27,813 nt of DNA from a virus (IMGVR_UViG_3300010398_000034:1-27813), one strand, 5' to 3'; positions 4,618 through 20,067 are shown, counted from the first letter of the stretch. Numbers and translations: made by a program. The notes: generated from the sequence alone by a model not told the origin.

Positions 4618-4851
4618 TTATTTTAACCTTACCACCTTTGATGTGGCAAGGCAAGGAGCACGCTGCCGATGCTGCGCACGCTGGCGCGCTCTGAAGCGTT
4701 GTGTGGCGCCTCTGGCTCTGCGTGCACAGAGGAGACAATGCCGGAGGGCATGATAGGCCGGGCGTCGTTTACAGCGCTGACAGAGCCGGATCTCTTGCAG
4801 GCTTTCCGTCGCGCTCATGGGTGGCTCAGGGTCTGGAGCGGTAGGCATCAA
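4618..4851 (-). CDS. Small basic zinc-finger-like protein
   Basis: CQRC...CLLC and an Arg-rich helix; ATGA overlap with the stop of the upstream 4848..5879 gene. Confidence 0.55.
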   Translation of the reverse strand: MMPTAPDPEPPMSATESLQEIRLCQRCKRRPAYHALRHCLLCARRARGATQRFRARQRAQHRQRAPCLATSKVVRLK

Positions 4852-6111: not shown

Positions 6112-7149
6112 TTAGAACAACCGCATCTGTTGGGTTTTCACGGTCCGATTCTTTTTCCTGTTACACCCGTAATGGGCGAGAGCGACATTTGGCCAGGTAT
6201 GGGTGCCGCCTTTACTCAGGGGAATAATGTGATCGGTCGTGGCACATAACGGATCAGGCCATGTGCGTTTGAGCGACACGCGCTTATGGCACAGGCTACA
6301 GATACCCTTGTCGCGGGCATAGAGGGTCGGCATATCGATCACGTCAATCTGCGTACCGCCGCGTTTGCGAGCACGGCGGGTCTCCTGATGCCTGCGCCCC
6401 ATCTCAGGATGCTCGCGGCGTCGCTCGGCCGCGCGTTGATTGAGCCGCTCACGATGGTCGCTTGCCGCGATATACACCTGAAATGCCTTGGCGCGACAGT
6501 CTTTGCAGTGTGCTTGACGCCCGTCTGGCTTGGACCGACAGATGGCATATTCCTCGAGCGGCTTCTCCATGAGGCAGCGGGGACAGATTTTGACGGTGGT
6601 ATGCGGGTCAAGATGCTCGACAGGCTTGGGAGCCCGGAGGCGCTCAGCATGCCGTTGATTATAGCCGCGCTGGTGTCGTGCACAACAGGCACGACACTGG
6701 GTTTTGAAGCCATCGCGACGCGCCAGATCGGCAGAGAAGGCCCGATAAGGGAGATCCTGCTCACAGCCGCTGCACCATTTGAGCGTATCAAGATCGACGG
6801 GCGGCGGGGTGGCAAGGTTCTGCGCTTTGCGCGCCTGTCGTGCCAGCGACTTCTGGTGCTTGCGGCACTCCCGACACTGGGACTGTAAGCCATATTGGCC
6901 TCTTTTGGATGTACCAAAGGCGCTTAACACAAGGTCGCGCCGACAGAGGCTACAGGGTTTGGTGGCGGGAAGGGGCTCACTGACAGGTTTCGGTGCCAGA
7001 ATCGATGTCCGATGCGTCCCATAATACGCCGTCCACGATGCCGCGGCACACGCTTTGCAATGCGACCGAAGGCCATCGCGTTTCTTGGCGTCCTGACTAA
7101 AGGCGTCAAGAGGGAGGTCACGTTGACAACCCGTACATTGTTTGGTCAT
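6112..7149 (-). CDS. Free-standing HNH endonuclease with four N-terminal CxxC...CxxC zinc-binding repeats
   Basis: Four KxCxxC-x~22-CxxC repeats; C-terminal ICSLC...TDHIIPLSKGGTHTWPNVALAHYGCNRKK. Start moved to ATG 7149 behind RBS GGAGGG. Ends QMRLF. Confidence 0.9.
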   Translation of the reverse strand: MTKQCTGCQRDLPLDAFSQDAKKRDGLRSHCKACAAASWTAYYGTHRTSILAPKPVSEPLPATKPCSLCRRDLVLSAFGTSKRGQYGLQSQCRECRKHQKSLARQARKAQNLATPPPVDLDTLKWCSGCEQDLPYRAFSADLARRDGFKTQCRACCARHQRGYNQRHAERLRAPKPVEHLDPHTTVKICPRCLMEKPLEEYAICRSKPDGRQAHCKDCRAKAFQVYIAASDHRERLNQRAAERRREHPEMGRRHQETRRARKRGGTQIDVIDMPTLYARDKGICSLCHKRVSLKRTWPDPLCATTDHIIPLSKGGTHTWPNVALAHYGCNRKKNRTVKTQQMRLF

Positions 7150-7170
7150 GATGCCCTCCATGTGGCAGTG

Positions 7171-7240
7171 TGGGACCATCAGGCTCTCCGTCGCATGGAC
7201 AACAGAAACTTGCACGCACCCGTCGGTGCGACCTGATGGC
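7171..7240 (-). ncRNA. HNH-associated three-way-junction leader RNA, copy A
   Basis: GCCAUCAGG-U-[CGCACC gacg GGUGCG]-UGCAAGU-[UUCUGUUGU ccau GCGACGGAG]-AG-CCUGAUGGU-CCCA. G.U pairs favour the - strand. Confidence 0.75.
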
Positions 7241-7246
7241 AGCATA

Positions 7247-7275
7247 ATTATAACAAATTCAATGACTTAGTGCAA
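7247..7275 (-). promoter_or_regulatory. Promoter of HNH cassette A
   Basis: TTGCAC-17 nt-TATAAT with extended TG; the predicted +1 coincides with the first base of the RNA motif. Confidence 0.8.
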
Positions 7276-7293
7276 TAAAGAAGTGACGAGAGT

Positions 7294-8913
7294 ATGGCAG
7301 AACAGGTGACCAACGGCACGCATTTTCCGGTCAATCCTTCGCAGCAGACGCCACAACTCACGCAGGTCGTGGAGCATCTCAACCTCAGAGATCTTTTACT
7401 TGAGCGTGGAACCAGCGGCTTGCGGCGTGCCGGTGGCTACGTACGAGAAGAACTATTAACAGAGCTATCAGGTCAACAAGGAATACGTAAGTTCAAAGAG
7501 ATGCGGGACAATTCGCCCGTAATAGGGGCATGCCTCTATGCCCTGGAAATGCGTCTACGCAATGTCAAATGGAAGTTTGTACCCGCTGATGATAGTGCCG
7601 AGGCCGACCGCTACGCCGAGCTGGCGACGGGTATGCTGTTTGAGGACCTGGAGTTACCCTGGTCGCTCTTGCAAAGTGAAATCCTCTCGTTTCTGCCTTT
7701 TGGCTTCTCCTATTTCGAGATGGTATTCAAGCGTCGTTTAGGGCTTGACCCGCCTCCGCAGCCGGACGGCATGCCGGGACTCCCGAGTCGCTTCAATGAC
7801 GGGCTGATCGGCTTGGGGAAGATTGCGCTGAGGCCGCCCGACACTGTCCTGCGTTGGGAGTTCGACCAGACCGGCGGCCTTATGGGGATGCACCAGATTG
7901 ACCCCTTCGCCGGTCGCCAGGCCTATATACCCTATGAGAAAGCCCTTCTGTTTAGACCTACTTTATATAAGAATAACCCCGAAGGTCGCTCCGTCCTACG
8001 CACCGCCTACCGTCCGTGGTACATGCTCACGCACATTGAGAACACGGAAGGAATCGGCATTGAGCGTGACCTCGCGGGGCTGCCGACCTTTGGCACGCCG
8101 CCGCAGTGGTGGCTCTCGTCGGCCTCGCCGGAAGAAGTGGCGCAGTTGGAGCTGGTGCGGCGCATTGGGCGCAATATCCGGGTCGATGAGCAGATGTGCT
8201 TGGTCTACCCGCTCATTTACGACCAGGCTGGCAACCAGCTGTTTAAATTTGAACTGGCCGGCACGGGCGGCGCCAAGGCGATCAACACCGATACGATTAT
8301 CCAGCGCTACGAACTGCGGATTACCCAGAGCCTGCTGTGTGACCTGCTCTTTATGGGGCATGAGGATGTGGGCAGCTTTGCCCTGGCCTCGTCCAAGTCG
8401 ACGACCGAGGCGATGAGCCTGGGCGGCTACCTGGAAGTGATCCAGGACGAGTTCAACCGGCGCTGCCTGCCGCTGCTGTGGCGCTTGAACGCCTTTCCCG
8501 AGCAGCGCCGCCCGCACTTAGAGCACGGCGACGTGGAATCGCTCGACCTCACCGAGCTGGCGCGCTTCATGCTCTCGTTTGGGCGGATTTACAATATGCA
8601 GGACCTGGAGAATTACTTCCGTACCGCCGCCGGACTCCCGGAGCGGCCGGGGGCGGAGAAGCATCCCTTGCCGCCGGCGATTCAGCCAACGCCGCGCGGG
8701 GGCGGCATGGGCGCGGCCAGCCACGGGGGTGGCTCCGGCACCTCGACCGAGGCCTTTCAGATGGGCGGCGCCGGCCTGGGGACCGGCAACGTCGGCATTC
8801 CCGATCTCGACCGCAGCCTGGAGTCGCAGAGTCTTTCCCTCAGTGTGGATCCAGCGCCAGCACCGACACCCGTGCGGAAGGGGCGGCGGCGCGCCTCCAA
8901 GGCACCCTACTAA
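7294..8913 (+). CDS. Portal protein (DUF935/Mu gp29-like)
   Basis: GTSGL...GYVREELLTELSG...EMRDNSPVIGA, NNPEGRSVLR, EGIGIERDLAGLP, GSFALASSK; 539 aa, located after terL. Confidence 0.88.
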   Translation: MAEQVTNGTHFPVNPSQQTPQLTQVVEHLNLRDLLLERGTSGLRRAGGYVREELLTELSGQQGIRKFKEMRDNSPVIGACLYALEMRLRNVKWKFVPADDSAEADRYAELATGMLFEDLELPWSLLQSEILSFLPFGFSYFEMVFKRRLGLDPPPQPDGMPGLPSRFNDGLIGLGKIALRPPDTVLRWEFDQTGGLMGMHQIDPFAGRQAYIPYEKALLFRPTLYKNNPEGRSVLRTAYRPWYMLTHIENTEGIGIERDLAGLPTFGTPPQWWLSSASPEEVAQLELVRRIGRNIRVDEQMCLVYPLIYDQAGNQLFKFELAGTGGAKAINTDTIIQRYELRITQSLLCDLLFMGHEDVGSFALASSKSTTEAMSLGGYLEVIQDEFNRRCLPLLWRLNAFPEQRRPHLEHGDVESLDLTELARFMLSFGRIYNMQDLENYFRTAAGLPERPGAEKHPLPPAIQPTPRGGGMGAASHGGGSGTSTEAFQMGGAGLGTGNVGIPDLDRSLESQSLSLSVDPAPAPTPVRKGRRRASKAPY

Positions 8914-8928
8914 AGGAATATATTTACT

Positions 8929-9192
8929 ATGGCACGCCGTGCGCCGATGGCCCGCAATGAGTCGATCCTCACCCGTATCCTGGCGGGGGAGTCCTTGCGC
9001 CACGTGGCGCGGGCCTACGGCATCTCGCCCGAGCGCGTGCGGCAAATTGTGGGGTGGCAGGCGCGCAGCCGCAATCAGCCACTCTACGATGATCTCATGG
9101 CCGACATTGCCACGGTCTCCCTGGTGCTGCTGCGCCAGCATGCCGTATACTTTATGGAGGATGTCGCGCGCGTGCGCGAGGCCGTCCCCTGA
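8929..9192 (+). CDS. Small helix-turn-helix DNA-binding protein
   Basis: RNESILTRILAGESLRHVARAYGISPERVRQIV; RBS AAGGA. Confidence 0.75.
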   Translation: MARRAPMARNESILTRILAGESLRHVARAYGISPERVRQIVGWQARSRNQPLYDDLMADIATVSLVLLRQHAVYFMEDVARVREAVP

Positions 9193-9203
9193 AAGGAGCC
9201 CGT

Positions 9204-9383
9204 ATGCCCGATCCCGATGTGGCCTCTGCCTTCCCCGAGTTTCCCGTGGAGGAGTTTCTCGACGCCGTGGCCCTGCGCGTCCCCGCCGACTGGTGGGGCG
9301 ACCTGCCTGCGGCTGGCCCAGTGCCGCAGACCTATGCGCTGCTGCGCGACGCCGACGCCGCCGATCTGGCGTCGGAGACCTGA
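9204..9383 (+). CDS. Hypothetical acidic 59-aa protein (absent from the ORF track)
   Basis: AAAGGAG RBS, then ATG; MPDPDVASAFPEFPVEEFLDAVALRVPADWWGDLP... Confidence 0.6.
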   Translation: MPDPDVASAFPEFPVEEFLDAVALRVPADWWGDLPAAGPVPQTYALLRDADAADLASET

Positions 9384-9388
9384 CCGTG

Positions 9389-9577
9389 ATGAAGCCCCTG
9401 CAACTGAGTGCCGGCCACTGGGTGAACGTCGACCTCATCACCCGCATCGTGTCTGACCGTGGTGGCTGGTATGTCTACGTCGGCCTGCGCGAAAGCCCCG
9501 TCATGCTGACGGCGGCAGAAGGGCAGGTGCTCGCCGCCTTTCTGGGGCTGGAGGTGGACGCCGCCACGAAAAGTTAA
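9389..9577 (+). CDS. Hypothetical 62-aa protein
   Basis: MKPLQLSAGHWVNVDLITRIVSDRGGWYVYVGL...; tightly packed after the previous ORF with high-GC3 codons. Confidence 0.6.
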   Translation: MKPLQLSAGHWVNVDLITRIVSDRGGWYVYVGLRESPVMLTAAEGQVLAAFLGLEVDAATKS

Positions 9578-9583
9578 GGGTGT

Positions 9584-9884
9584 TTGACGTCCTCCGCTCC
9601 CTGACGGAAGCGGATTCCTGGGAGGTCTTACCCAGAAGTTTACGGTTCAGGTTCTTGGGGTGTGCTCCAGTCGGCTGGACCCCGTACCCTGTGCAGCGCC
9701 CCGTCATTGGGCGCCCCTAGAGCAACCTCAAGAAGCTCTAGGACTTGCGAGAGGTTCGTGCTATGCGTACAACGTTTTACGCTGACACCTCCGGTCAGCA
9801 ACCACCTACGCTGTGTTGTCGAAGAACCTGGAACGGGAACAAAAATGGTCCGTGGCAATGGACACCATCTACTCCGCAGACCAC
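9584..9884 (-). ncRNA. Orphan structured RNA ending in an IS200/IS605-type right end (TnpB omega-RNA-like)
   Basis: 3' end GGAAUCCGCUUCC guca GGGAGCGGAGGACGUCAA resembles IS605/IS1341 right ends. A long-range stem CAGGUUCUU/AAGAACCUG encloses at least five hairpins. No credible ORF; promoter at 9890-9919. Confidence 0.6.
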
Positions 9885-9889
9885 ATATA

Positions 9890-9919
9890 AGTCTAGCAGT
9901 TTATTTGTTCCCTTTACAA
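9890..9919 (-). promoter_or_regulatory. Putative promoter for the orphan structured RNA
   Basis: TTGTAA-18 nt-TAGACT with extended TG; overlapped by the imperfect palindrome GCATTTATCTGTT/AACAAATAAACTGC. Confidence 0.5.
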
Positions 9920-9985
9920 CAGATAAATGCGCTACAGATACGTAGAAGTGACAGGAGGGCATGTATGTTATTTTGGTAGTGTGTA

Positions 9986-10015
9986 TTGACATTTCACTGC
10001 AACTGTCTTTACCTT
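9986..10015 (+). promoter_or_regulatory. Sigma70-type promoter (head segment)
   Basis: TTGACA-18 nt-TACCTT, followed by the conserved leader. Confidence 0.7.
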
Positions 10016-10021
10016 GTACGC

Positions 10022-10093
10022 AGCGTGTTTTGGGAAAAGGCCAGGCGTGGCTGCCCCTGAACGCGTTTTTTGTGTGCCTGCCTGCCCCTTTCC
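10022..10093 (+). ncRNA. Conserved promoter-proximal structured leader RNA, copy 2
   Basis: AGCGUGUUUUGGG pairs with CCCUGAACGCGUU, followed by UUUUGUG. Internal GGAAAAGGCCAGGC can pair with downstream GCCUGCCCCUUUCC. Confidence 0.7.
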
Positions 10094-10128
10094 TCGCCTG
10101 ACGTTCCTGCTGTGAAAGTCTCGCTGCC

Positions 10129-10713
10129 ATGCCCTGGAGCGCTGCGGACGCCAAAAAGCATAAGCAAGGTCTCACGCCGAAACAGTCCAAAACGTGGGCC
10201 ACAGTGGCCAATGAGGCCCTCAAGCGCTGCCAGGAGTCCGGGCAGGGGGACTGTGACGGACGGGCCATACGCATTGCCAACTCGGTCGTGGGCAAGAGTG
10301 TCGACAGTGAGGCCCTGGCCCTCGTGCTCGAAGCCCGCATCGCCAAATCCGACGATGAGCAGCGCCGTATCTGGGGCTATGCCTCGATTGCCGTGATGAA
10401 AAATGGCGTGCAACTGATTGATCTCCAGGGCGATGCCATCGACATCGAGGACCTCGCCGCCGGGTGGTACGACTACGTCAAAGAATCGGGCGCGCTCAAT
10501 TTCCAACATCAGGGTCCGGTGCGCGGGCGCTTGATTGAGGCGGTCGTGTTTACGCCGGAAAAGCTGGCGCTGTGGGGCCTGGAGCCCGATGCCCTGCCGC
10601 TGGCGGCCTGGGTCGGGTACGAGGTCGACACGCCAGAGGATTACCACGTGCTCAAAGATCTCGGCTTTTTTATGTTCTCCATCGAGGGCGAGGCCCTCAG
10701 AGAGCCCTTCTAA
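10129..10713 (+). CDS. XkdF-like putative prohead protease with ChaB-like N-terminus
   Basis: IAKSDDEQRRIWGYASI...DLQGDAID...NFQH...FSIEG; N-terminal WATVANEAL...RAIRIANSVV. Confidence 0.75.
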   Translation: MPWSAADAKKHKQGLTPKQSKTWATVANEALKRCQESGQGDCDGRAIRIANSVVGKSVDSEALALVLEARIAKSDDEQRRIWGYASIAVMKNGVQLIDLQGDAIDIEDLAAGWYDYVKESGALNFQHQGPVRGRLIEAVVFTPEKLALWGLEPDALPLAAWVGYEVDTPEDYHVLKDLGFFMFSIEGEALREPF

Positions 10714-12446
10714 TGCCGACCAAGCTGCGCAAACTCAAAATCACACGGGTCGCAGTGTGTCGGCAGGGCGCCAACTTCGACCCGGAGACGGGCGAGGGGG
10801 CGCATATTCTCCTGTTCAAGGCCCAGGACGAGGAGGAGAAGCGGCGCAGTGGGGTGGGAGCGACGCCGCAACCGGATGCGCGGGATCTGGAGGACGAGGA
10901 CGAGGAGGAGGACGAGGACGAGGACGAGGCCGAGGGCAGCGTCGGCAAGGCGTGGTCGACCGCTGCGGTCAACGATTTTCCTGACGCAAGTTTCGCCTAT
11001 ATTAGTCCAGGTGGCTCGAAGGATGCGAGCGGGAAAACGACACCCAGAAGCCTGCGCCATCTGCCCTATAAGGATAAGGGGGGTAAGCCCGATCGGGATC
11101 ATGTGCAGAATGCCCTGGCACGCCTGAACCAGACCGACATCCCCGCCGCTGCGAAAGCCAGCGCCGGACGCAAACTCCGGGCGGCGGCCCGCGCGCTGGG
11201 CATGGAGCTGAGCGCGGACACCGAGAAGCAGGCCCTGGACTACTCGCCCCTCACCGGCTGGCACAGTGAACCCGATGCCGACGCGGCTACCGAGCCCTTG
11301 GACTACGCCACGCGCAGCCAGCAGCAGGAACTGTGGTCGTGCCTGCTTGATAAGTGGCAGCGCTTCTCGACGACGTTCTATGACTGTGTCGGCGATATGG
11401 ACGCCGATAACGTCGCCTGTCTCCCGGTGCTGACGCGCTCTATTGGGCAGTTTGAAGAAGACGTGCAGGAGCTGCTCTCGGAACTGGGCATCGTCGAGAA
11501 AACGGCCCCGGTCCTGGCGCAGATGACCGAGGTGTGTAAGGCTGGCGCGGCCATGGCCGGACACCGCCTGACGCGCCTGAAGCATGCCATTACCACGCTG
11601 CAACAGATTCTGGATGAGTGTACCCCCGAAACTATTGACCGCCCTGGCGTCTCCGCAGCCGATGTGCTGTCCATGCCTGGGATCATGAAAGGAGAGGCCG
11701 CCATGGCTCTAGTCCGCAAGAATGCCGAGAGTGATAAGGAACACTGCGACAACTGTGAGGACGAGGATTGCGAGCACCCAGCCCACGAGCGCATGCAGAA
11801 GACCATGCAGGGGCAACTTGAGGCGCTGACGAAGCGCGCCGAGAAAGCCGAAGCCCAGGTGACCGCGCTCTCTGCCGACCTCGTCAAGTCCCAGAGCGAC
11901 CTCGCCACCCTGCGCGAGGAGATGGCCGTCGCCAAAATGAGTCCCGAGGAACAGCGCGTCAAGATGCTGGAGAGCATGCCCGACCTCGTGCGCAAGAACT
12001 ACCTGGATCAGGAAGCCCGGTTGGAACTCCTGGAAAAGAGTAACCGCGACCTGCAGGAGGGCAACCAGCGCCTGGCCTATATCCAGAAGACGGCCGGTCT
12101 CAGGCATTTTGGCCTGACGCCCGATAGCTGGCGCGTGCTCAAAGCGATCGACTTAATCCCGGATGAGGCGGACCGCACCGAACTGCTGCGCCTCATCACC
12201 TCGGCCAATGAACTCATGAAAACGTCGGCCGCCTGGGGCGCCCGCGGCTCCGATGGCCACGGCGCCGGCCTCTCTGCCTCCGCCACCGGCGATGCCGAAG
12301 GCCAGATCCTGGCGCTGGCCAAAGCGCGGGCCGAGGAGAAGGGCGAAACGCTCTCAAAAGCGATCGAGCACATCGCCCGCAGTCAGCCCGAGTTGTGGGA
12401 GCAGAATCAAAGAGAAAAGCGCGCCAAGAATCGGGTCAACACCTAG
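10713..12446 (+). CDS. Head maturation/scaffolding protein
   Basis: TAATG coupling to the upstream gene. N-terminal ITRVAVCRQGAN...HILLFKA, acidic (ED)n tract, NDFPDASFAYI...RHLPYKD module, coiled-coil C-terminus; strong internal RBS and ATG at 11703. Confidence 0.75.
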   Translation: MPTKLRKLKITRVAVCRQGANFDPETGEGAHILLFKAQDEEEKRRSGVGATPQPDARDLEDEDEEEDEDEDEAEGSVGKAWSTAAVNDFPDASFAYISPGGSKDASGKTTPRSLRHLPYKDKGGKPDRDHVQNALARLNQTDIPAAAKASAGRKLRAAARALGMELSADTEKQALDYSPLTGWHSEPDADAATEPLDYATRSQQQELWSCLLDKWQRFSTTFYDCVGDMDADNVACLPVLTRSIGQFEEDVQELLSELGIVEKTAPVLAQMTEVCKAGAAMAGHRLTRLKHAITTLQQILDECTPETIDRPGVSAADVLSMPGIMKGEAAMALVRKNAESDKEHCDNCEDEDCEHPAHERMQKTMQGQLEALTKRAEKAEAQVTALSADLVKSQSDLATLREEMAVAKMSPEEQRVKMLESMPDLVRKNYLDQEARLELLEKSNRDLQEGNQRLAYIQKTAGLRHFGLTPDSWRVLKAIDLIPDEADRTELLRLITSANELMKTSAAWGARGSDGHGAGLSASATGDAEGQILALAKARAEEKGETLSKAIEHIARSQPELWEQNQREKRAKNRVNT

Positions 12447-12526
12447 GGACGCCTCCCAGGGCTATCACCTTTCGTCCGCCACAGCCTGTTCCGGACGGGG
12501 CCAGGGGCGGAAAGGAGCCGTACGCT

Positions 12527-12928
12527 ATGCCACATATTGCGGTCTATGACGACAGTTTTCGCTCCACCACGGACATGCGCCTGAAGCAATTCGCGCCCGT
12601 GAAATTGGCCGCCACCAAGGATTTTATTACCGAGTGTGCCGCTGCGACGGATGATGTCTACGGCATTCAGCAGGGGAAACCCAATGTGAATGAAGTCGGG
12701 CGCATTGCCATTGTCGGGCGCTGGACGGCCTTAGTCGACGGCTCGGGCACCGCCATTGCTATCGGCGATCCCTTGGGTCCCAACGCCACCGGCACCATGC
12801 TGGTCAAAAAGACCACGGCGGATAACGCCATCTGTGCGCGCGCCTTGGATGTCTGCACCATTAGCGGCGGCAAAATCGACGTCGATTTGTTTGCCGGCAT
12901 GGGCGCGCGCTTTCGCCCGGCGGCGTAG
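12527..12928 (+). CDS. Capsid cement/decoration protein (DUF2190-like)
   Basis: AAAGGAG RBS; 133 aa, YGIQQGKP...AIAIGDPL...ARALD; lies between scaffold and capsid. Confidence 0.7.
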   Translation: MPHIAVYDDSFRSTTDMRLKQFAPVKLAATKDFITECAAATDDVYGIQQGKPNVNEVGRIAIVGRWTALVDGSGTAIAIGDPLGPNATGTMLVKKTTADNAICARALDVCTISGGKIDVDLFAGMGARFRPAA

Positions 12929-12938
12929 GGGGGGGCGC

Positions 12939-13199
12939 ATGCCAGATGATCCGTATCTGGATGAGTTGCTCCGGCACCTCTCCATCACGTACCGGCCCGA
13001 GCTTGAGCGCCCGCAGCGCCTGGCCCACACGTGGGGTGGCGTGGAGGGGTATCCGCCCCTCTCTGGCCGCATCCCGCGGGGCACCCAGGCGGACTGGTTT
13101 CGCCCTCTGACTGGCTGGGGACGCCTGCGGGACTGGGCCTGGAGTCGGACGACCCTGCTCGTATCGTGCCTCAGGCGGTGGGGGAAGGGGCTCCTCTAG
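12939..13199 (+). pseudogene. Degenerate duplicate of the major capsid N-terminus
   Basis: DPYLDELLRHLSITY...SGRIPRGTQADWFR aligns with capsid DPYVDILLTEISIGY...TGFIPGYMQSDWFR; the stop overlaps the HNH stop. Confidence 0.7.
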
Positions 13200-13939
13200 G
13201 AGCCCGCAAAGTCAAAGGTGAGGGTGGCATCTTCCGGGGACTGGCGCTTGGCAGAGCGCTGGCCCCGGCGCATCAGTTGGGCACTCTGTTCATGGGCATA
13301 GGTTGTCTGAAACCATACCAGAAACCTGGGTAGATTGACATGCTCCAGCAGACCATGCACAAGGCGATGACAGCCATAACACAGGCAGACAAAGTTCTCT
13401 ACCACGTTGTTCTTCCTGTTGCGGTCAATATGATGCAGATAGACCGCCCGGTCGGCATACGACACGCCGCACAGCACACAACACCCCTTGTCGCGCCTCC
13501 ACGCGATAACACCGCCTTCGCCATAGGTCTGACGGATGCGAAACTCTTTTTCGGCTTCCAGCGTCGTGCCCATCGTATTGACCATACGCTTGCGCCGGTG
13601 CTTCCGGGTGCCCTCCACAGCCGCAAGCATGTGTGTGACACAATGGCGTCGCGAGCTGGGGGCCAAACGCTCATCGCAATGCACACACAGCCCACGACTC
13701 AGATGGTCTTCTGCCCTCGCCTGCGCCATGGCTTGGCGCTTTTCCAGACAGTCGTCACACGTTACTTTGCCATTCGCTGTCGGTCTGCCGCAGGATCTGC
13801 ACTGGCCCCGCACGCTGCGCAGAATGGTGCGGACTGTGTTGTCATGAATTCCCATAATGCGTGCCGTTTTACGGAGTTCTCCCGTTTCCGCATAGACGGC
13901 CAGGACGCGGTCGCGATCAACAATTCTCGGTCGGGCCAT
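13196..13939 (-). CDS. Free-standing HNH endonuclease with N-terminal HTH and zinc fingers
   Basis: ELRKTARIMGIHDNTVRTIL (HTH), two Cys/His clusters, RDKGCCVLCG...LHHIDRNRKNNVVENFVCLCYGCHRLVH; RBS GAGGAG. Confidence 0.9.
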   Translation of the reverse strand: MARPRIVDRDRVLAVYAETGELRKTARIMGIHDNTVRTILRSVRGQCRSCGRPTANGKVTCDDCLEKRQAMAQARAEDHLSRGLCVHCDERLAPSSRRHCVTHMLAAVEGTRKHRRKRMVNTMGTTLEAEKEFRIRQTYGEGGVIAWRRDKGCCVLCGVSYADRAVYLHHIDRNRKNNVVENFVCLCYGCHRLVHGLLEHVNLPRFLVWFQTTYAHEQSAQLMRRGQRSAKRQSPEDATLTFDFAGS

Positions 13940-13979
13940 CGGTGTTCTCTCCTCTCTGTTTCAATGTCGAAGATGCTTA

Positions 13980-14008
13980 ATTGTACCAAGAATGACAGAG
14001 AATGTCAA
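13980..14008 (-). promoter_or_regulatory. Promoter of HNH 13196..13939
   Basis: TTGACA-17 nt-TACAAT with extended TG; short leader without the junction motif. Confidence 0.8.
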
Positions 14009-14149
14009 CATATTTCTAACGCCATGAGGCATAACCATGTGGCGTTTATGGGGGAGAGTATTTGTTCCCTCATAGATGATTATAATTTGGCACAGCCTAT
14101 ATTATACAACGATATAGGAATAGCCGTAGATCCAGAAAGGTAACGCCGC

Positions 14150-15091
14150 ATGGCTGAGACAGCGCTACACGACCCTTATGTCGATATCTTGTTAACCGAG
14201 ATCAGTATAGGATATTCCAACCCGGACTATATCTTCCCGCAGATTGCCTCGGTGGTGCCCTGCCGCTGGCCCACGGGCTTTATTCCGGGCTACATGCAGT
14301 CCGACTGGTTCCGCAACACCGCGAACCGCCGGGCGACGGGCACCATGAGCCGGCGCGGCTCGTTTAACCTGACCACCGACACGTATTCGTCGAAGCGCGA
14401 TTCCTTTGGGTTTGAGTTGGCGGATGAAGTGAGAGACGCGACGATGGAACCGTACAACATGGACAGAGACGGCACCCTGTTCGCGACCGACCGGGTCTTA
14501 ATGACCCAGGAGATGGACTTCTCCACGAACCTCTTTACGACCGGCGTCTGGACCGATGCCACGGGCTACGTGCAGTGGTCCGACTACGGGGCGAGTGTGC
14601 CGCTACTCCTCGTGGCGCAGTCGCTTGATAATATCGAGGGCCGCGTCGGGCGTGAAGGCAATATGGTAGTTCTAGGTAAACAAGTTTTCACTGTACTAAG
14701 GTGGCATCCGGATCTCCTGGATACCATCAAGTACACACAGCGCGCCATCATTACCGAAGACATCATGCAGTCGCTCTTTGGGGTGGATAAAATCCTGGTG
14801 GGGCGCGGCATTTACACGGCCAGCCCGGAAGGCACGGCGGAAGCGAGTGTGGTGTATCAGCGCATCTGGGCGAAGAACTGCCTGTTTCTGTACAACCCAC
14901 CCGCTCCTAGTTTAATTACTCCTGCGGCAGTCTATAATTTTGTTTGGCAGCGTGTACCTCTTAGTAATACTTATATGAGACGCTTTCGCGAAGAGCCTAG
15001 GGAGCTTGACGTGCTTGAAGCGAACTCGTATCATGATTTTCATGTAACATCCTCGCGGTCTGGAGAGTTTCTAGCGAACATTGTGGCATAG
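14150..15091 (+). CDS. Major capsid protein
   Basis: 313 aa; VDILLTEISIGYSNPDYIFPQI, WSDYGASVP, LRWHPDLLDTIKYT, IWAKNCLFLY; follows scaffold and cement genes. Confidence 0.88.
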   Translation: MAETALHDPYVDILLTEISIGYSNPDYIFPQIASVVPCRWPTGFIPGYMQSDWFRNTANRRATGTMSRRGSFNLTTDTYSSKRDSFGFELADEVRDATMEPYNMDRDGTLFATDRVLMTQEMDFSTNLFTTGVWTDATGYVQWSDYGASVPLLLVAQSLDNIEGRVGREGNMVVLGKQVFTVLRWHPDLLDTIKYTQRAIITEDIMQSLFGVDKILVGRGIYTASPEGTAEASVVYQRIWAKNCLFLYNPPAPSLITPAAVYNFVWQRVPLSNTYMRRFREEPRELDVLEANSYHDFHVTSSRSGEFLANIVA

Positions 15092-15092
15092 G

Positions 15093-16133
15093 CTAAAAGA
15101 TACCTAATTGCTCATTAAAAGGTAACATATTAACCGGGGTCCCGTAGCGCAACTCAAAGCGCACTCGGATGGAAGCCAGCAGTTCTGGGCTTTCCAGGCG
15201 ATTGTTCTTCAAGGTGTTACAGTAATGATGGGCCAGTTTCGTGTTACGATAGCTATGGTCCCCGCCACGTGTCACTGGAATGCGGTGGTCTATGGTGGGG
15301 ATACGCTTATCGGGCCATTTCAGACCGGCATCGACGGGGTAGCCACAGAGAGTGCACATGCCATGATCCCGTTCGTACACCAGGGCAATATCAATAAAGC
15401 GATCCGTGATCTGTGCCCCTCTGAGCAAGGCGCGTCGGCGCTGCGATGCCGCCCGGCGATAGCTCGGATGTTCCAGAAACCACCGGATGCTTTTTTGCCG
15501 CATTTTCTCCATGCGTACCGGATTGCTTCGCGCTTTCTCCCGGTCGCGGGCACCATAGATTTTGACTGCTTCGGGATGGGCCAGTTGCCACCGGCGCGTC
15601 TTGGCATAAATCACCGCACGCCTCTCAGGGTCCTGCCGCACTTTCTTGGCATGCCGATTCGCGATAGGTCTGCGCTTCTCAGGGTTTTCTCTATTCCACG
15701 CGGCATTGCTCGCTTTACGGCACGTGGTGCAGAATGTATCCATCCCCGTCTTGCTGTAGGGATTATCGTAAAACTCGCTCGCTACCTTCGTCTGTCCACA
15801 CTGCGAACACGCTTTCTCAACAATGCGCTCATCACGGGGATGGATCGGCTGGCTCCGCCCGTTATGACAGTCCTTACATTCAGCTTGCAAGCCATCAGGG
15901 CTGCGCGACCACTTATGAAACTCCGAGCCAGGCTTGACTTCTTGACACCTCGAACATGCTTTTGTCTCAACAGCAATCTTGGGCGCTTGCGTCCTGGCAC
16001 TATCGCGCTTTTTAAAGCACTCCTTGCACTCAGCCATGACACCAAGACGACCACCTTTGGCCTTATGAAACGCGCTCAAGGGCTTGGGATCACCACACTT
16101 GGAACATACTTTAGTCAGTTCTGGGGCTTCCAT
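15093..16133 (-). CDS. Free-standing HNH endonuclease with three CxxC...CxxC zinc-binding repeats (paralog of 6112..7149)
   Basis: Three KxCSxC-x~22-CxxC repeats; YERDHGMCTLCG...TIDHRIPVTRGGDHSYRNTKLAHHYCNTLK. ATG 16133 behind AGGAGG. Ends QLGIF. Confidence 0.9.
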   Translation of the reverse strand: MEAPELTKVCSKCGDPKPLSAFHKAKGGRLGVMAECKECFKKRDSARTQAPKIAVETKACSRCQEVKPGSEFHKWSRSPDGLQAECKDCHNGRSQPIHPRDERIVEKACSQCGQTKVASEFYDNPYSKTGMDTFCTTCRKASNAAWNRENPEKRRPIANRHAKKVRQDPERRAVIYAKTRRWQLAHPEAVKIYGARDREKARSNPVRMEKMRQKSIRWFLEHPSYRRAASQRRRALLRGAQITDRFIDIALVYERDHGMCTLCGYPVDAGLKWPDKRIPTIDHRIPVTRGGDHSYRNTKLAHHYCNTLKNNRLESPELLASIRVRFELRYGTPVNMLPFNEQLGIF

Positions 16134-16156
16134 GACACCTCCTGTACGGTGAAAGA

Positions 16157-16231
16157 TGGGGTGTTCAGGCTCCCAGCCTCTACAGGGAAGCCAGGACTTG
16201 CTCGGACGCTGATCAGGCGTCACCTGAACAC
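16157..16231 (-). ncRNA. HNH-associated three-way-junction leader RNA, copy B
   Basis: GUGUUCAGG-U-[GACGC cugauca GCGUC]-CGAGCAAGU-[CCUGGCUUC ccugua GAGGCUGGG]-AG-CCUGAACAC-CCCA. Confidence 0.75.
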
Positions 16232-16236
16232 TATAG

Positions 16237-16265
16237 ATTATACCATATTACGTCATTTTGTACAA
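16237..16265 (-). promoter_or_regulatory. Promoter of HNH cassette B
   Basis: TTGTAC-17 nt-TATAAT with extended TG. Confidence 0.8.
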
Positions 16266-16275
16266 GGTAATTGTT

Positions 16276-17124
16276 ATGCCTGACGACACGGCCAGCGAGT
16301 TTCTGGAAGTCCTCCAGCGCCTCTCGGACCAGCAGTCCTCGACCTTTGAGCGGCTGCTCCTCCAGCGCGGCATGGCCTGTAACTTGAACCAGCAGTATGT
16401 GCAGTCCCTCGCCATGCGCCTGCTGTGTACCACGGTGGTCGACCCCCTGACCAACGACACACGCCTGTGCGAGCACGGTTGTGGGCATGTCTGGTACGAC
16501 ATCCCGGCAGCAGTGCAGGACGCCTATGAGAGGTGGTCGGCACAGTGGGAGGATGAAGAGGGCGAGCCAGAGCCCGCAGATGCGGGGCAAGGTGAGGTGC
16601 CCCAGGACGTTGCGCCCGCTGATCACGTACCGGTGGTGCTGCCGGTTGAGGAACCTCTGGAGCCTCCGGTGCCCCCACCACCTGCACCTCCTCGCCCGCT
16701 GGCCATCCGTCCGGCCCGCGTGCAGCAGCAATGGTGGTGTAGGTTCACCGTGCCCGGCATGGGGTACTTTACCTACAAGGGCACCAACTACGACCGCGGC
16801 CAGCTCCTCACCTTGAGCGGCGGCCCGCGCGATGAACAACTGGAGCGCCTCGGCTATGTCTACCGGGCGCCTAGGGAAGAGACGTACCTCCAGGCCCAGT
16901 GCGGCGTCTGCCAGGCCTGGTTTCTCACCGAGGCCTTTCGCGATCAGCACGGGCGACTGCGCCACCGCGGGCGTTTCGCGGACGATCTGGAGATTGGCGG
17001 CGGCATGGAGGGACCACAGGGCGGTACCGGCTTCCGCGATATTACGGGCGATGCCGATGAAAGACGTATGCAGGCGCAGTACCCGCTGCACTTAGACCGC
17101 ACCAAGGCGACCCTGGAGGGCTAG
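16276..17124 (+). CDS. Hypothetical protein with Pro-rich linker and C2H2-like zinc finger
   Basis: ATG 16276 after AAGG; CGVCQAWFLTEAFRDQHGRLRH. Confidence 0.7.
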   Translation: MPDDTASEFLEVLQRLSDQQSSTFERLLLQRGMACNLNQQYVQSLAMRLLCTTVVDPLTNDTRLCEHGCGHVWYDIPAAVQDAYERWSAQWEDEEGEPEPADAGQGEVPQDVAPADHVPVVLPVEEPLEPPVPPPPAPPRPLAIRPARVQQQWWCRFTVPGMGYFTYKGTNYDRGQLLTLSGGPRDEQLERLGYVYRAPREETYLQAQCGVCQAWFLTEAFRDQHGRLRHRGRFADDLEIGGGMEGPQGGTGFRDITGDADERRMQAQYPLHLDRTKATLEG

Positions 17125-17129
17125 AGGCG

Positions 17130-17360
17130 ATGCGTGTTGACGTGACGTACACCTATCACTGTAGTGCGGCCGGCTGCGGGGTGACGAAAAGCGAGCACTA
17201 CGAAGACCAGACCTACGGCGGTGGCATCCCGCTGCGCCTGCCGAGCGTGCCGCGTGGCTGGTTGGAGTTGGGACTGCTCATGTTTTGTCCCATCCATACG
17301 GTGCTCTTGTCGGTGGATGGACACGAGGAAACCTTAACAGAGGCTAGCCCGCCTACGTAG
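17130..17360 (+). CDS. Small hypothetical Cys/His-containing protein
   Basis: 76 aa, HCSAAGC...FCPIH; packed in the operon. Confidence 0.55.
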   Translation: MRVDVTYTYHCSAAGCGVTKSEHYEDQTYGGGIPLRLPSVPRGWLELGLLMFCPIHTVLLSVDGHEETLTEASPPT

Positions 17361-17383
17361 GTGGGTGAGGAGGAGGTGGGCCA

Positions 17384-17830
17384 ATGTTACAGCGCGTCAA
17401 TGTTGTCTCGGAGGGGCTGAAGCTGCCCCGCACGGCGACGGTGATCCCGCAGGCGGGGGTGCGGTCGCTCTATACCATCAGCGGCGTCGTGCGCATTCGC
17501 CAACTCTACGGCGTCGTCACGACACTCATTGCCGGCGGCGCCAACAACGCCAAGTTTCAATTTCACCCCACGGGCCAGACCGCCATCGACCTCTGCGCCG
17601 TGGCCGATATTGGCACGGTGCCGCTCGTCGTGGGGCAACTGATCGGCGTCGTCTTTCCGCCGGCCACGGCCATGGCGGCGGGCTGGGGCATTCAGGATAC
17701 GACGCAGGATTTCCTTATTGGGCCGGGCACCATCGACTTTAACTGCACCGCTGCGGCTGGCACCGGCGCCTTCCGCTTTCTCCTGGCCTACGATACGGAG
17801 CCGGGAGCCTTTGCGGTGCTGGCCCCCTAG
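17384..17830 (+). CDS. Hypothetical virion-associated beta-rich protein
   Basis: Strong GAGGAGG RBS; 148 aa rich in G/A/T/V; head region. Confidence 0.7.
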   Translation: MLQRVNVVSEGLKLPRTATVIPQAGVRSLYTISGVVRIRQLYGVVTTLIAGGANNAKFQFHPTGQTAIDLCAVADIGTVPLVVGQLIGVVFPPATAMAAGWGIQDTTQDFLIGPGTIDFNCTAAAGTGAFRFLLAYDTEPGAFAVLAP

Positions 17831-18063
17831 GGCCTGACGCCGGTGGGGCAGGCTGGTTGAAAGGCCGTCGCGATATGTGTAACCGCGCCCGACGGGCACT
17901 CGACGACGAACGCCCCGCCCGTGACGCCCCGGATGGCGGTCGGGCAGCGTGGCTGAAAGCGGGCCGTGGTATGCGTAGCGGCGCCCGAAGGCGACCCCGC
18001 CATGTAGGTCGTGGCACTCGGCGGTTTGACTGCACCGCTCGGACAGTTGGGTAGCATAGGCAT
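17827..18063 (-). CDS. Small Cys/Pro-rich repeat peptide (78 aa)
   Basis: RBS AGAGGAG, then ATG; MPMLPNCPSGAVKPP...SPSGAATHTTARFQPRCPT...CPSGAVTHIATAFQPACPT. Confidence 0.55.
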   Translation of the reverse strand: MPMLPNCPSGAVKPPSATTYMAGSPSGAATHTTARFQPRCPTAIRGVTGGAFVVECPSGAVTHIATAFQPACPTGVRP

Positions 18064-18096
18064 AGCATCTCCTCTTCTGTGTAGAAAGGATACATC

Positions 18097-18552
18097 ATGC
18101 CCGGCAATCCGCAAACCTCCCCTTTCTGGGGCACCTTTCTGGATACGCACGGCTCCAACAGCGAAGAGGAAGCCGCCTTTCTGGGCTACCTCACGACGCA
18201 TCAGATTGATCCCGGTGGGGATCCCAGCATGGTGGCAGAGGCGTACAGCGCCTTTCACGCCTGGATGACCGACTCCTACACGCATGACGCCACGGCCTCT
18301 GAGGCGGCCAATGTCGCGGCCACGTCCCAGGGTGTGGCCGAAGCCAGGGCTGCGGAACTGGCGCTCTACGCCGTGCCACGCTCCTCGCACGGCGATGTCC
18401 GGTTGCAGAAACCGAACACGGCGGCGACCAGGCCCCCGGAGAGCCGCGTGGCGCCCCCACCGCCTCCGCCCGAGACGCCGCCGGCCGCTGCCGCCCCGCC
18501 GCCCCCGCAAGCAAGCGCCCGCAGCCGCTCCAGTAGCGAGGGCAGCGCATGA
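18097..18552 (+). CDS. Hypothetical protein with Pro-rich C-terminus
   Basis: AAAGGA RBS; 151 aa; ATGA coupling to the next gene. Confidence 0.65.
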   Translation: MPGNPQTSPFWGTFLDTHGSNSEEEAAFLGYLTTHQIDPGGDPSMVAEAYSAFHAWMTDSYTHDATASEAANVAATSQGVAEARAAELALYAVPRSSHGDVRLQKPNTAATRPPESRVAPPPPPPETPPAAAAPPPPQASARSRSSSEGSA

Positions 18553-18806
18553 ACCCGGCGAGCGAGCGCATGCTTGTCCATTTTGACTATGACCATCTGC
18601 CACCTCATCTGCGCGATGTGAGCCAACCGTTCTGTCTCCTCGCCGGACAACTCGCGCAGATCCTCGATAGTAATGATGCGACGGCAGGCGCGGAAGTCAC
18701 GACAGGCTTACGCAAACTGTTGGAAGCGAAAGATTGCTTTGTGCGGGCACAGGTGCGATTGACCAAACTTGACGATCCAAGCTCGGTGAGTGCCGATCCT
18801 GAGTGA
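18549..18806 (+). CDS. Conserved small phage helical-hairpin protein (HLPPHL...LRKLLEAKDC.VRA type)
   Basis: FDYDHLPPHLRDVSQPF...AEVTTGLRKLLEAKDCFVRA, a pattern I recognise from phage hypothetical proteins. Confidence 0.75.
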   Translation: MNPASERMLVHFDYDHLPPHLRDVSQPFCLLAGQLAQILDSNDATAGAEVTTGLRKLLEAKDCFVRAQVRLTKLDDPSSVSADPE

Positions 18807-18831
18807 ACGGGGCGAAGGAGCATGCCATTAG

Positions 18832-19461
18832 TTATACGTACAGTGGCAGCCTTGGTCCACGGCCAGGGGCCATACCATGCTTGTGGAGAAAGCGTTGCAT
18901 GGTGCATTGGCTGACGCCAAAGTGTTTGGCTAAGCGTACCTGTCCATACCGATAGGGATCATAGAGACGGATGATCTCTGGCAGGTCAGCCTCTGTGAGC
19001 TTGGTATTACTGGGTAAGCGCCGGCGTCCTTTGGTGATAGAGTCCTGGACATTTTGCTGTTGCGTGCCAGGCCAGAGATGGGCCGGATTCACGCAAGCAG
19101 GGTTATCCCCTTCGGGGCAGTTATGACAGATAAGCATGTCGTCGGGAATAACACCATGGGTCAGGACATAGGCGGCTCGGTGCGCCGGTATGTTCTTATG
19201 GTGGGTGATCGCAAACTGGCCATACCCATCTTTCCCTTTCGCACCTTGCCAGATCCAGCAGCCGTCCGCAGTCGTTTTGAGCACTTTGACCCAAAAGCGA
19301 TCCCACAGGCTGAGTTTTCTTGGACAGGATTTCCCTTGCCGCGCTCGTCCTTCAAAGCGGCTTTTGCATGGGTGCGAGCAAAACTTTGCTGTCTCCGCAC
19401 GATAGGGATGGACAAGAAAGGTCGTACCACATTCAAGACAGATAAGGGATATGCGTACCAC
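18832..19461 (-). CDS. Free-standing HNH endonuclease (HNH_3 type) with N-terminal zinc ribbon and C-terminal HTH
   Basis: CLECG...FCSHPC; RFWVKV...CWIWQGAK...GYGQF...AHRAAY...ICHNC...DNPACVNPAHLWPGTQQQNVQD; LAKHFGVSQCTM. GTG 19461 behind GAGGAG. Confidence 0.9.
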   Translation of the reverse strand: MVRISLICLECGTTFLVHPYRAETAKFCSHPCKSRFEGRARQGKSCPRKLSLWDRFWVKVLKTTADGCWIWQGAKGKDGYGQFAITHHKNIPAHRAAYVLTHGVIPDDMLICHNCPEGDNPACVNPAHLWPGTQQQNVQDSITKGRRRLPSNTKLTEADLPEIIRLYDPYRYGQVRLAKHFGVSQCTMQRFLHKHGMAPGRGPRLPLYV

Positions 19462-19486
19462 GTGATGTCTCCTCAACAGACGAGTA

Positions 19487-19558
19487 TGGGGTACCCAGGC
19501 TCTCTCTCGGTTGAGGCGAGAGAGACTTGTCGAGCGGAGGCCTCCGCTACCTGAGCCC
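19487..19558 (-). ncRNA. HNH-associated three-way-junction leader RNA, copy C
   Basis: GGGCUCAGG-U-[AGCGGA ggcc UCCGCU]-CGACAAGU-[CUCUCUCG ccucaac CGAGAGAG]-AG-CCUGGGUAC-CCCA. Confidence 0.75.
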
Positions 19559-19562
19559 TAAA

Positions 19563-19591
19563 AGGATAGCACGGTAGAACGAAAAAGTCTA
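19563..19591 (-). promoter_or_regulatory. Promoter of HNH cassette C
   Basis: TAGACT-17 nt-TATCCT with extended TG. Confidence 0.65.
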
Positions 19592-19623: not shown

Positions 19624-20067
19624 ATGTCATGGACTTACAGCGGTAATCCAAATGCTTCTAGGGTAGATGCAGTCCATTATTTCCTCGGAGATACAGACCC
19701 TGGAAACCCGGTCAGCACGGACGAAGAGTGTGCCTTCGAGCTGTGTAACTACGGCATGAATCCGCTCCTCGCGGCGGCCTCCATTGCCGAAACCAAGGCG
19801 GCGCAGTTCGTCATGCGCCCGACCAGGGTGCGGCGCGGCGACCGCATCACCGACTACGGCGATGGCGCCCAGGCCTACCGCATGCTGGCGCAGTCCTTGC
19901 GCCTGAAGGCCTCCATTGCCAGCACCGTGATCTACTCGGGCGGCGTGGACGTGGCGGAGAAGCAAGCAGAAAAGGCCGATATGAGTACGGTCAAGCCCTT
20001 TGCCACCACCGACCTGCATACGCCACGGCCGTGGAGAGGATGGGAAGAGGAGGAGCGTGAGCCGTGA
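19624..20067 (+). CDS. Head-tail adaptor/connector protein
   Basis: MSWTYSGNP...DAVHYFLGDTD...TDEE, a typical adaptor N-terminus; downstream of capsid. Confidence 0.75.
   Translation: MSWTYSGNPNASRVDAVHYFLGDTDPGNPVSTDEECAFELCNYGMNPLLAAASIAETKAAQFVMRPTRVRRGDRITDYGDGAQAYRMLAQSLRLKASIASTVIYSGGVDVAEKQAEKADMSTVKPFATTDLHTPRPWRGWEEEEREP

Follow-up and report, generated by a model that had tools for sequence, protein, structure and literature searches.

A structured RNA leader before HNH nuclease genes of a soil-derived virus record: a candidate translational lock with a self-complementary loop

Introduction

The 27.8-kb virus record IMGVR_UViG_3300010398_000034 (27,813 nucleotides (nt), analyzed over its full length and hereafter called the window), whose sequence occurs in soil metagenome runs, raises the question of why three nuclease genes from two unrelated families should each be preceded by the same folded RNA. 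The plus strand of the window carries terminase, Mu-type portal, major capsid protein, and further virion genes, and four HNH nuclease genes (HNH1 to HNH4; Table 1) are inserted among them on the minus strand. A previous sequence-only reading described, before three of these nucleases, a three-way-junction RNA with a tRNA-like CCA end, and proposed a portable module that controls, inhibits, or partners toxic nucleases, possibly after release as a small RNA. The comparisons presented here point instead to a leader that very probably acts as a translational lock on the ribosome-binding site of the gene that it heads. The fuller account favored here, in which this lock on nuclease genes is gated by dimerization of the RNA, is put forward tentatively, with a likelihood that approaches an even chance without reaching it. 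No description of this leader was found in the literature searched.

Architecture of the Leader and Its Homologs

The recurrent architecture described by the sequence-only reading is present in the window. All three copies lie on the minus strand (7240-7171, 16231-16157, and ~19556-19487), the pattern CAGGT-N-CAAGT-N-AGCCTG has three matches in the window versus none in 100 shuffles, and the three-way junction folds better on the minus strand (z of -2.8, -3.4, and -2.4) than on the plus strand (z of 0.1, -1.8, and -1.6). Each copy begins, as had been proposed, at a predicted (unmapped) +1, located 5-6 nt behind a -10-like hexamer, and pattern and structure scans agree with the earlier statement that the fourth HNH gene (13196-13939) lacks the motif. 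Other details required revision. The first paired stem (P1), described as having 9 base pairs (bp), has 7 bp plus a U.G pair in copy 3. The junction "U" and "AG" taken to be single-stranded are in fact paired, since U.G closes P1 and U-A opens P3, leaving two of the junction strands without unpaired bases. The UCAGG/CCUGR ends occur in the window copies but are not a fixed sequence, as homologs vary at these positions with compensation. Likewise, CCCA stands directly behind P1 in each window copy, whereas only 8/36 copies of the family have CCA at this place, which makes the tRNA-like end a local peculiarity of the window. Finally, the 11-13 nt regarded as a spacer before the ribosome-binding site form a fourth hairpin (P4), the loop of which (L4) is complementary to the loop of P3 (L3).

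Homologs of the leader were collected by several routes. Single-protein searches of viral contigs returned one weak or distant locus each. A metagenome scan with the C-terminus of the HNH1 family returned 15 loci, including the window itself, one identical copy, two duplicates, one false hit, and three loci with the upstream region missing; among the seven informative loci, the gene is headed by the leader motif in five, by a leader whose junction is of the int-alpA type in one (locus L054), and by a plain hairpin in one (locus L060). A first motif-first scan of viral sequences produced 115 matches in 112 loci, 16 of which passed a structure filter, and a second produced at least 119 loci with 19 model matches, including repeats. 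Strict patterns that included CCCA matched 17 viral and 9 genome loci, none of which passed the structure descriptor, and these were rejected as chance matches. Covariance models found copies in 6/151 bacterial genomes of a phylum sample around a Chloroflexia record, in 16/66 genomes in the class of one match, and in 2/151 genomes around an Armatimonadota record. There was no model match in samples of 151 genomes around G009, 151 around G411, and 121 around G413, a result that refers to the 27-34 candidates scored per genome and does not signify absence. With a loose pattern, 34 matches were obtained in 31 of 401 genomes, a yield that did not exceed that of a reversed control; rescoring 29 of its 30 loci, among them two already known copies, yielded four new copies and one weak candidate (L318) that was dropped. 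The resulting main set contains 36 non-redundant copies, 25 of viral or metagenomic origin and 11 from bacterial genomes, which are related by descent, so that all counts given here are of non-independent events. A second held-out set comprised 12 model matches, 10 of which were parsed (L385 was dropped as false, and L381, cut by a contig end, was left unparsed).

Across the main set, P1 is closed by GGU in 36/36 copies, and the bases after P3 are AGCC (27/36) or GGCC (7/36). The long junction strand reads CGYAAGU or departs from it slightly. P1 begins 4-8 nt behind a -10-like hexamer in 22/25 copies. The observation that the stems differ in sequence while pairing is kept holds for the homologs, with two-sided changes at 22/25 pairs and pairing in 95% of the cells of a 20-sequence alignment, both values being inflated by the fitting of this alignment to the structure. 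A covariance check against Rfam gave no match in the window or the homolog loci, and a tRNA search of the window found neither a tRNA nor a tRNA-like match. The leader is thus a real structured RNA family without an Rfam entry.

Complementarity Between L3 and the Shine-Dalgarno Hairpin

The loop and 3' strand of P4 contain the Shine-Dalgarno sequence, placing the complementarity of L3 over the ribosome-binding site. This pairing was absent from all search patterns and models. At least six Watson-Crick pairs between L3 and the region before the Shine-Dalgarno sequence were present in 18/18 of the first copies examined, compared with 8/306 swapped combinations (0/100000 permutations). The same held for 7/7 later viral copies (0/42 swapped) and for 10/11 copies from bacterial genomes (3/110 swapped), giving 35/36 versus 22/1260 overall, with 33 distinct loop sequences. 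A close relative of the window (locus L064) displays a double change, with UCCGUG:CACGGA in place of the UCCAUG:CAUGGA of the window, and no second or decoy target for L3 was found in the transcript of any copy (0/36). P4 itself also covaries (mean of 4.44 versus 3.26 pairs; 0/20000) and is weak by itself (median of -5.6 kcal/mol in 25 copies), and the loop-loop contact is therefore likely to be what would close the ribosome-binding site.

A Self-Complementary Loop in P2

The loop of P2 (L2) is complementary to itself in most copies. Among the 36 copies, 20 have a palindrome of at least six bases (e.g., UGAUCA, UAGCUA, UGGCCA, UGUACA, UGCGCA, or GUGCAC), 4 have a four-base palindrome, 7 have GACG, 2 have GGCA, and 3 have other sequences. 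In shuffles, palindromes of at least six bases occurred in 4.0 copies on average and in no more than 12 (0/10000), and L3, used as a control loop, is palindromic in 1/25 copies. In P2 stems of odd length, the central two bases are complementary in 21/21 cases (AU, GC, CG, or UA), a covariation that cannot be intramolecular because adjacent bases of one strand cannot pair. No partner for L2 was found elsewhere in its own transcript. Palindromic L2 loops recur in 7/10 copies of the second held-out set, although the model had been trained on such loops. The GACG kissing structure consists of two base pairs. Palindromes and GACG tetraloops, the same two loop types as in L2, are the dimer-linkage loops of retroviral RNAs according to one report (PMC516450); the leader differs in its context, which is a bacterial mRNA, and in that its dimer is predicted. 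Coupling of the lock to dimer formation appears somewhat more probable than its absence.

Proposed Mechanism and Alternative Explanations

Comparison of the sequences establishes the junction, the complementarity of L3 and L4, the P4 hairpin, and the self-complementarity of L2, and it also shows that the leader lies directly behind a -10-like hexamer and is spread over gene types; repression, the dimer, and the direction in which the dimer acts are what we infer, the likelier direction being that the dimer is the off state. In the mechanism favored here, a host-type promoter would produce the leader mRNA. Just after DNA entry, the few transcripts present would be monomers, and the weak P4 would leave the ribosome-binding site partly open, allowing a little protein to be made. 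As transcripts build up, kissing dimers would form through L2-L2 contacts, and within the dimer L3 would capture the P4 loop, either its own or that of its partner, such that ribosomes are excluded. The leader would then constitute RNA-only negative feedback on gene dose, a property that would suit homing nucleases, replication initiators, and the first genes of satellite islands.

If dimer coupling is true, bacterial parasites would use retrovirus-like mRNA-mRNA self-pairing as translational feedback, explaining how selfish nucleases and satellites could switch on at entry and off later, and a module of ~95 bases with a swappable loop address could serve as a compact orthogonal part for translation control. 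A broader proposal, to which we attach a lower likelihood and which is better regarded as possible than as probable, is that the leader and the int-alpA RNAs discussed below are widespread protein-free dose sensors in which docked mRNA pairs lock each other's ribosome-binding sites. Were this so, expression would be brief on entry and followed by built-in immunity, with the variable loop of 6-7 bases acting as a private address. The mechanism favored here offers a concrete account of orphan mobile-element RNAs (i.e., the leader family and the catalogued but unexplained int-alpA). Should the cis lock alone prove true, the leader would still represent a new RNA family captured by several unrelated nuclease genes.

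Several findings weigh against dimer gating or against the generality of the lock. In the second held-out set, only 5/10 copies reach six Watson-Crick pairs between L3 and L4 (2/90 swapped); by eye and with one G.U pair allowed, L383 reaches six and L382 five, whereas L389 has five pairs and a lost Shine-Dalgarno sequence, and L379 and L388 fail. Some of these copies may be decayed. Five of the 36 L2 loops (the 2 GGCA and 3 other loops) lack clear self-pairing, and copies within one genome may share an L2 type (GACG in L052a and L052b; UAGCUA in both G002 copies), so the loops are not strictly orthogonal. The distance from junction to target is tight (21-25 nt in 31/36 copies), which suits a purely intramolecular contact equally well, and this spacing is not correlated with the length of P3 (rho 0.22, p 0.20). 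In addition, a limited literature search found no printed precedent for dimer-gated translation control in bacteria.

The strongest of the alternatives is a constitutive intramolecular damper, in which L3 is always in kissing contact with its own molecule's Shine-Dalgarno hairpin, leakage sets a low steady level of protein, and L2 serves stability or processing. Covariation of L3 with L4 and the tight spacing are equally expected under this explanation, no alternative partner for L3 was found, and ordinary tetraloop docking could account for the invariant GG/CC pairs and the C-GYAA-G junction. However, a damper leaves the self-complementarity of L2 across many sequences, including its adjacent central bases, unexplained, and it must accommodate four copies with much shorter spacing (15-19 nt) and one more at 19 nt; L257 has no linker. 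On balance, it is considered a serious rival, although less probable than dimer gating.

A switch that is closed by default and opened by a cue (e.g., dimerization in lytic growth, a protein of a helper phage, or a ligand of the junction) is a less probable but still serious explanation. The conservation of the junction bases (GGU in 36/36 and CGYAAG in most copies) would be expected of such a switch, its downstream genes would be wanted in lytic growth or during helper infection, and in class-II cobalamin riboswitches a kissing loop indeed controls a Shine-Dalgarno hairpin. Nevertheless, the downstream genes share no common metabolic theme, the int-alpA and L054 leaders occupy the same role with another junction sequence, which argues against a single ligand pocket, and no alternative fold was found.

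The small RNA of the sequence-only reading, cut out with a tRNA-like CCA end and binding or guiding the nuclease as an antitoxin or partner, is now highly improbable. The position of CCCA right behind P1 in the window and a fold that is stable by itself speak for it, but besides the rarity of CCA in the family and the negative tRNA search, the counterpart of copy 3 in a related phage reads CCCU instead, non-nuclease genes carry the same fold upstream, and the variable loop tracks the ribosome-binding region of its own mRNA. As P1 starts directly at the predicted +1, RNase P-type processing would find no 5' extension to remove. A protein-binding antitoxin is unlikely because the variable loop covaries with its own ribosome-binding region and not with the nuclease family, and because the same fold precedes non-nucleases (in 3/25 viral copies and in the bacterial-genome copies with a readable gene). 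The suggested parallel with type III toxin-antitoxin systems also fails, given a single copy per gene rather than tandem repeats, downstream genes that encode HNH DNases or non-nucleases, and no PADLOC match to such a system.

A role at the DNA level, whether as an operator, as a promoter for an alternative sigma factor, or as a signal marking the end of a mobile cassette, is barely credible: the element lies at a promoter, L2 palindromes are also DNA palindromes, and the cassettes are mobile, but G.U pairs and better sense-strand folding, palindromes that vary in sequence and alternate with GACG, and a long-range Shine-Dalgarno complementarity that has meaning only in a transcript all oppose it.

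Comparison with Known RNAs

The closest known family is int-alpA (Rfam RF02996). The 19 real copies of int-alpA likewise have a three-way junction and a GACG or palindromic P2 loop (15 GACG and 4 four-base palindromes); their P3 loop, too, matches the Shine-Dalgarno region by complementarity, the gene that follows varies, and a Shine-Dalgarno hairpin can be recognized by eye in several of them. The leader is a sister family and not a member, because the junction bases differ (GGU/CGYAAGU/AGCC in the leader; mostly CUA or AUA/GAAAA/UGGCC in int-alpA), because int-alpA carries a second, proximal decoy site behind P1 (both sites in 14/19 copies versus 0/36 in the leader, with different spacing), and because the models do not recognize one another. 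RF02996 (cut-off of 35.8 bits) matches neither the window (E<=5) nor, with the limit relaxed to E<=10, 9 + 13 homolog loci and the records G000 and G001, and the leader model R3 applied to int-alpA loci reaches a best E of 0.78, with the two best-scoring matches on the wrong strand. Two leader copies from Chloroflexota samples (L305 and L306) follow a Pfam-confirmed integrase, and a third (L330) probably does, unlike the window copies. Before an HNH1-family gene in locus L054 (~200-310), the place of the leader is taken by an RNA that has an int-alpA-type junction and a GACG loop and that matches the loop of its Shine-Dalgarno hairpin over five bases, undetected by Rfam models and by the leader model, and the two leader types seem interchangeable. 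The int-alpA family reportedly originates from Weinberg et al. 2017. It is not mentioned in the main text of PMC5737381, and a published remark on its Shine-Dalgarno pairing may exist.

More distant parallels are found among regulatory RNAs of mobile elements. The C4 antisense RNAs of P1/P7 and the CI RNA of P4 are operon 5'-end RNAs that target sequences near the downstream gene. The sequence-only reading had drawn this analogy, and it stands loosely, in that the leader is a 5'-end RNA aimed at the downstream ribosome-binding site and, in bacterial genomes, heads satellite-like islands before excisionase- and primase-like genes. However, the leader has no 5' leader of its own and no conserved CCA, its single target of 6-7 nt lies at a fixed distance as opposed to the repeated targets of C4 and CI, and Rfam C4-type models have no match in the window or the homolog loci. 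In the class-II cobalamin riboswitch and in ColIb-P9 repZ, whether a Shine-Dalgarno hairpin is accessible depends on a loop-loop or pseudoknot contact, as proposed for the leader. The repZ gene encodes a replication initiator; its pseudoknot turns translation on, and a separate antisense RNA prevents the pseudoknot from acting. The cobalamin riboswitch differs from the leader in that the leader has no Rfam match and is not known to bind a ligand. Homing-nuclease genes of T-even phages (I-TevI, II, III, segB, and Aeh1 mobE) offer a functional parallel, since these selfish genes are held down by RNA structure in which their Shine-Dalgarno sequence is sequestered, as described in PMC2988022. There, a single hairpin is escaped by means of a late promoter inside the hairpin, whereas the leader has its own promoter, a four-stem fold that begins where the +1 is predicted, a proposed loop-loop contact, and a self-complementary loop.

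Genes Behind the Leader and Mobility of the Cassettes

The leader proved to be a portable structured RNA module, as had been suggested, preceding several unrelated nuclease families as well as other genes. Enrichment upstream of nucleases was also confirmed: 17/25 viral or metagenomic copies precede a recognizable HNH gene (zinc-repeat, McrA-like, or HNH_3), five of these 17 having been found via the HNH itself. In a further 5/25, the downstream gene has an HNH-family-like start and is truncated or interrupted. The remaining 3/25 stand before genes of other kinds, which encode a Phg_2220_C protein, a protein with HTH_36, and a small membrane protein. Leader homologs also stand before two replication-type genes. 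It is likely that the leader controls the downstream nuclease genes. Many HNH genes have no leader, among them three of the five PF01844 matches in the related record G001, and in 22 more distant HNH loci the matched genes lack it, the model matching only one locus (L029), before a different gene. Leader-bearing HNH genes broken by stops or an insertion were seen in two contigs (L062, 5845-7063; L069, 2587-2820). A third leader type, a long single hairpin with a small capped side stem, occurs upstream of the HNH start in more distant loci (L039, L041, L043, L044, L047, and L060).

In bacterial genomes (Chloroflexota and Armatimonadota samples), the downstream proteins are variable, several with a weak C-terminal helix-turn-helix signal, and the copies adjoin integrases, tRNA genes, an excisionase-type gene, or primase-like genes, contexts that we read as satellite-like islands. 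The first genes of four such loci (L305, L306, L308, and L375) have unrelated N-termini and a common C-terminal helix-turn-helix-like tail (GRPxG...SQE(N/R)VA) without a Pfam or PADLOC match; these tail-sharing proteins are possible sensor-regulators of satellite islands.

The nuclease genes of the window appear, from comparison with related contigs, to behave like free-standing homing endonucleases, because the HNH3 site is empty in a relative (L061, ~4579), a duplicated gene start flanks the HNH3 cassette both in the window and in L052 (~8260-8285 and 9045), and the post-capsid site is variable. In the window, the HNH3 cassette lies between a remnant of the 5' end of a virion gene (Table 1) and the restart of that gene, where 19624-19644 encode the recoded start M-S-W-T-Y-S-G. 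At the post-capsid site, each of four relatives carries a different HNH gene, headed by a variant leader wherever the contig includes that region; no empty post-capsid site was found among the DNA contigs compared over 14700-16900. The HNH4 cassette (12928-14150 in the window) is missing from L052 (3891-3933) and L059 (3028-3160), where the site is empty. A 14-bp hairpin (14043-14078) lies between the HNH4 promoter and the capsid gene.

Features of the Window

As the sequence-only reading had stated, HNH1 and HNH2 are zinc-repeat HNH nucleases (PF01844, phrog_1035) and the third nuclease is of the HNH_3 type; HNH1 and HNH3 have no BLASTP similarity, in agreement with two unrelated families. 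The exclusion of IscB/HEARO likewise stands, as the proteins have profile matches to HNH families only and no HEARO or other Rfam model matches the window. PADLOC gave weak generic matches only. The coordinates of the leaders and genes are given in Table 1.

Table 1. Leader elements and associated genes in the window (positions from the first nucleotide; hexamers read from sequence; amino acids, aa).
Feature	Position	Strand	Details
-10-like hexamer TATAAT, copy 1	7247..7252	-	TG two bases upstream
Leader copy 1	7150..7240	-	P1 7240-7231/7184-7175; P2 7230-7215, GACG loop 7224-7221; junction UGCAAG; P3 7208-7185; linker; P4 7167-7164/7155-7152
L3 of copy 1, UCCAUG	7194..7199	-	Complementary to CAUGGA 7162-7157, overlapping Shine-Dalgarno GGAGG
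-10-like hexamer TATAAT, copy 2	16237..16242	-	
Leader copy 2	16134..16231	-	P1 16231-16222/16170-16161; P2 16221-16205, palindrome CUGAUCAG 16216-16209; P3 16196-16171; P4 16151-16148/16139-16136
L3 of copy 2, CCUGUA	16181..16186	-	Complementary to UACAGG 16146-16141, overlapping AGGAGG
-10-like hexamer TATCCT, copy 3	19563..19568	-	TG two bases upstream
Leader copy 3	19462..19556	-	P1 19556-19549/19500-19493; P2 19548-19533, palindrome GAGGCCUC 19544-19537; P3 19525-19501; P4 19481-19478/19470-19467
L3 of copy 3, CCUCAAC	19510..19516	-	Complementary to GUUGAGG 19477-19471, overlapping GAGGAG
HNH1	6112..7149	-	Zinc-repeat HNH nuclease, 345 aa; C-terminal QQMRLF, predicted sliding-clamp-binding end
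HNH2	15093..16133	-	Zinc-repeat HNH nuclease, 346 aa; C-terminal EQLGIF; head-on behind major capsid gene
HNH3	18832..19461	-	HNH_3-type nuclease, 209 aa; GTG start
HNH4	13196..13939	-	Own sigma-70-like promoter 14008-13980; no structured leader; serves as internal control
Remnant 5' end of virion gene (I-S-Y-T-Y-S-G)	18827..18847	+	Original gene restarts at 19624

The C-terminus of HNH1 (6112-6132, minus strand) ends, as do 14/22 aligned HNH1-family relatives (the window's own proteins not counted), in QQ(M/L)RLF, which resembles the consensus of the clamp-binding motif. A complex model of HNH1 residues 270-345 with the Escherichia coli beta clamp scored 0.69, the best control scoring 0.02; the mark used for such models is reached by 116/157 solved pairs and by 2/215 mismatched pairs. 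Runs of the model agree in at least 95% of contacts, the predicted local distance difference test (pLDDT) value of the partner is at least 84, and the contacts are centered on residues 339-345. Because the clamp used comes from E. coli, which merely stands in for the host, and because structures of clamp-peptide complexes have already been solved, the model indicates a likeness to the clamp motif and not binding. A clamp-binding end, if real, would keep a homing nuclease attached to DNA during replication. The end of HNH2 (EQLGIF, 15093-15113) is likewise clamp-motif-like. Downstream of HNH1, between the terminase and portal genes, the minus strand also carries a 343-aa gene (4848-5879) with a weak phrog_5931 match.

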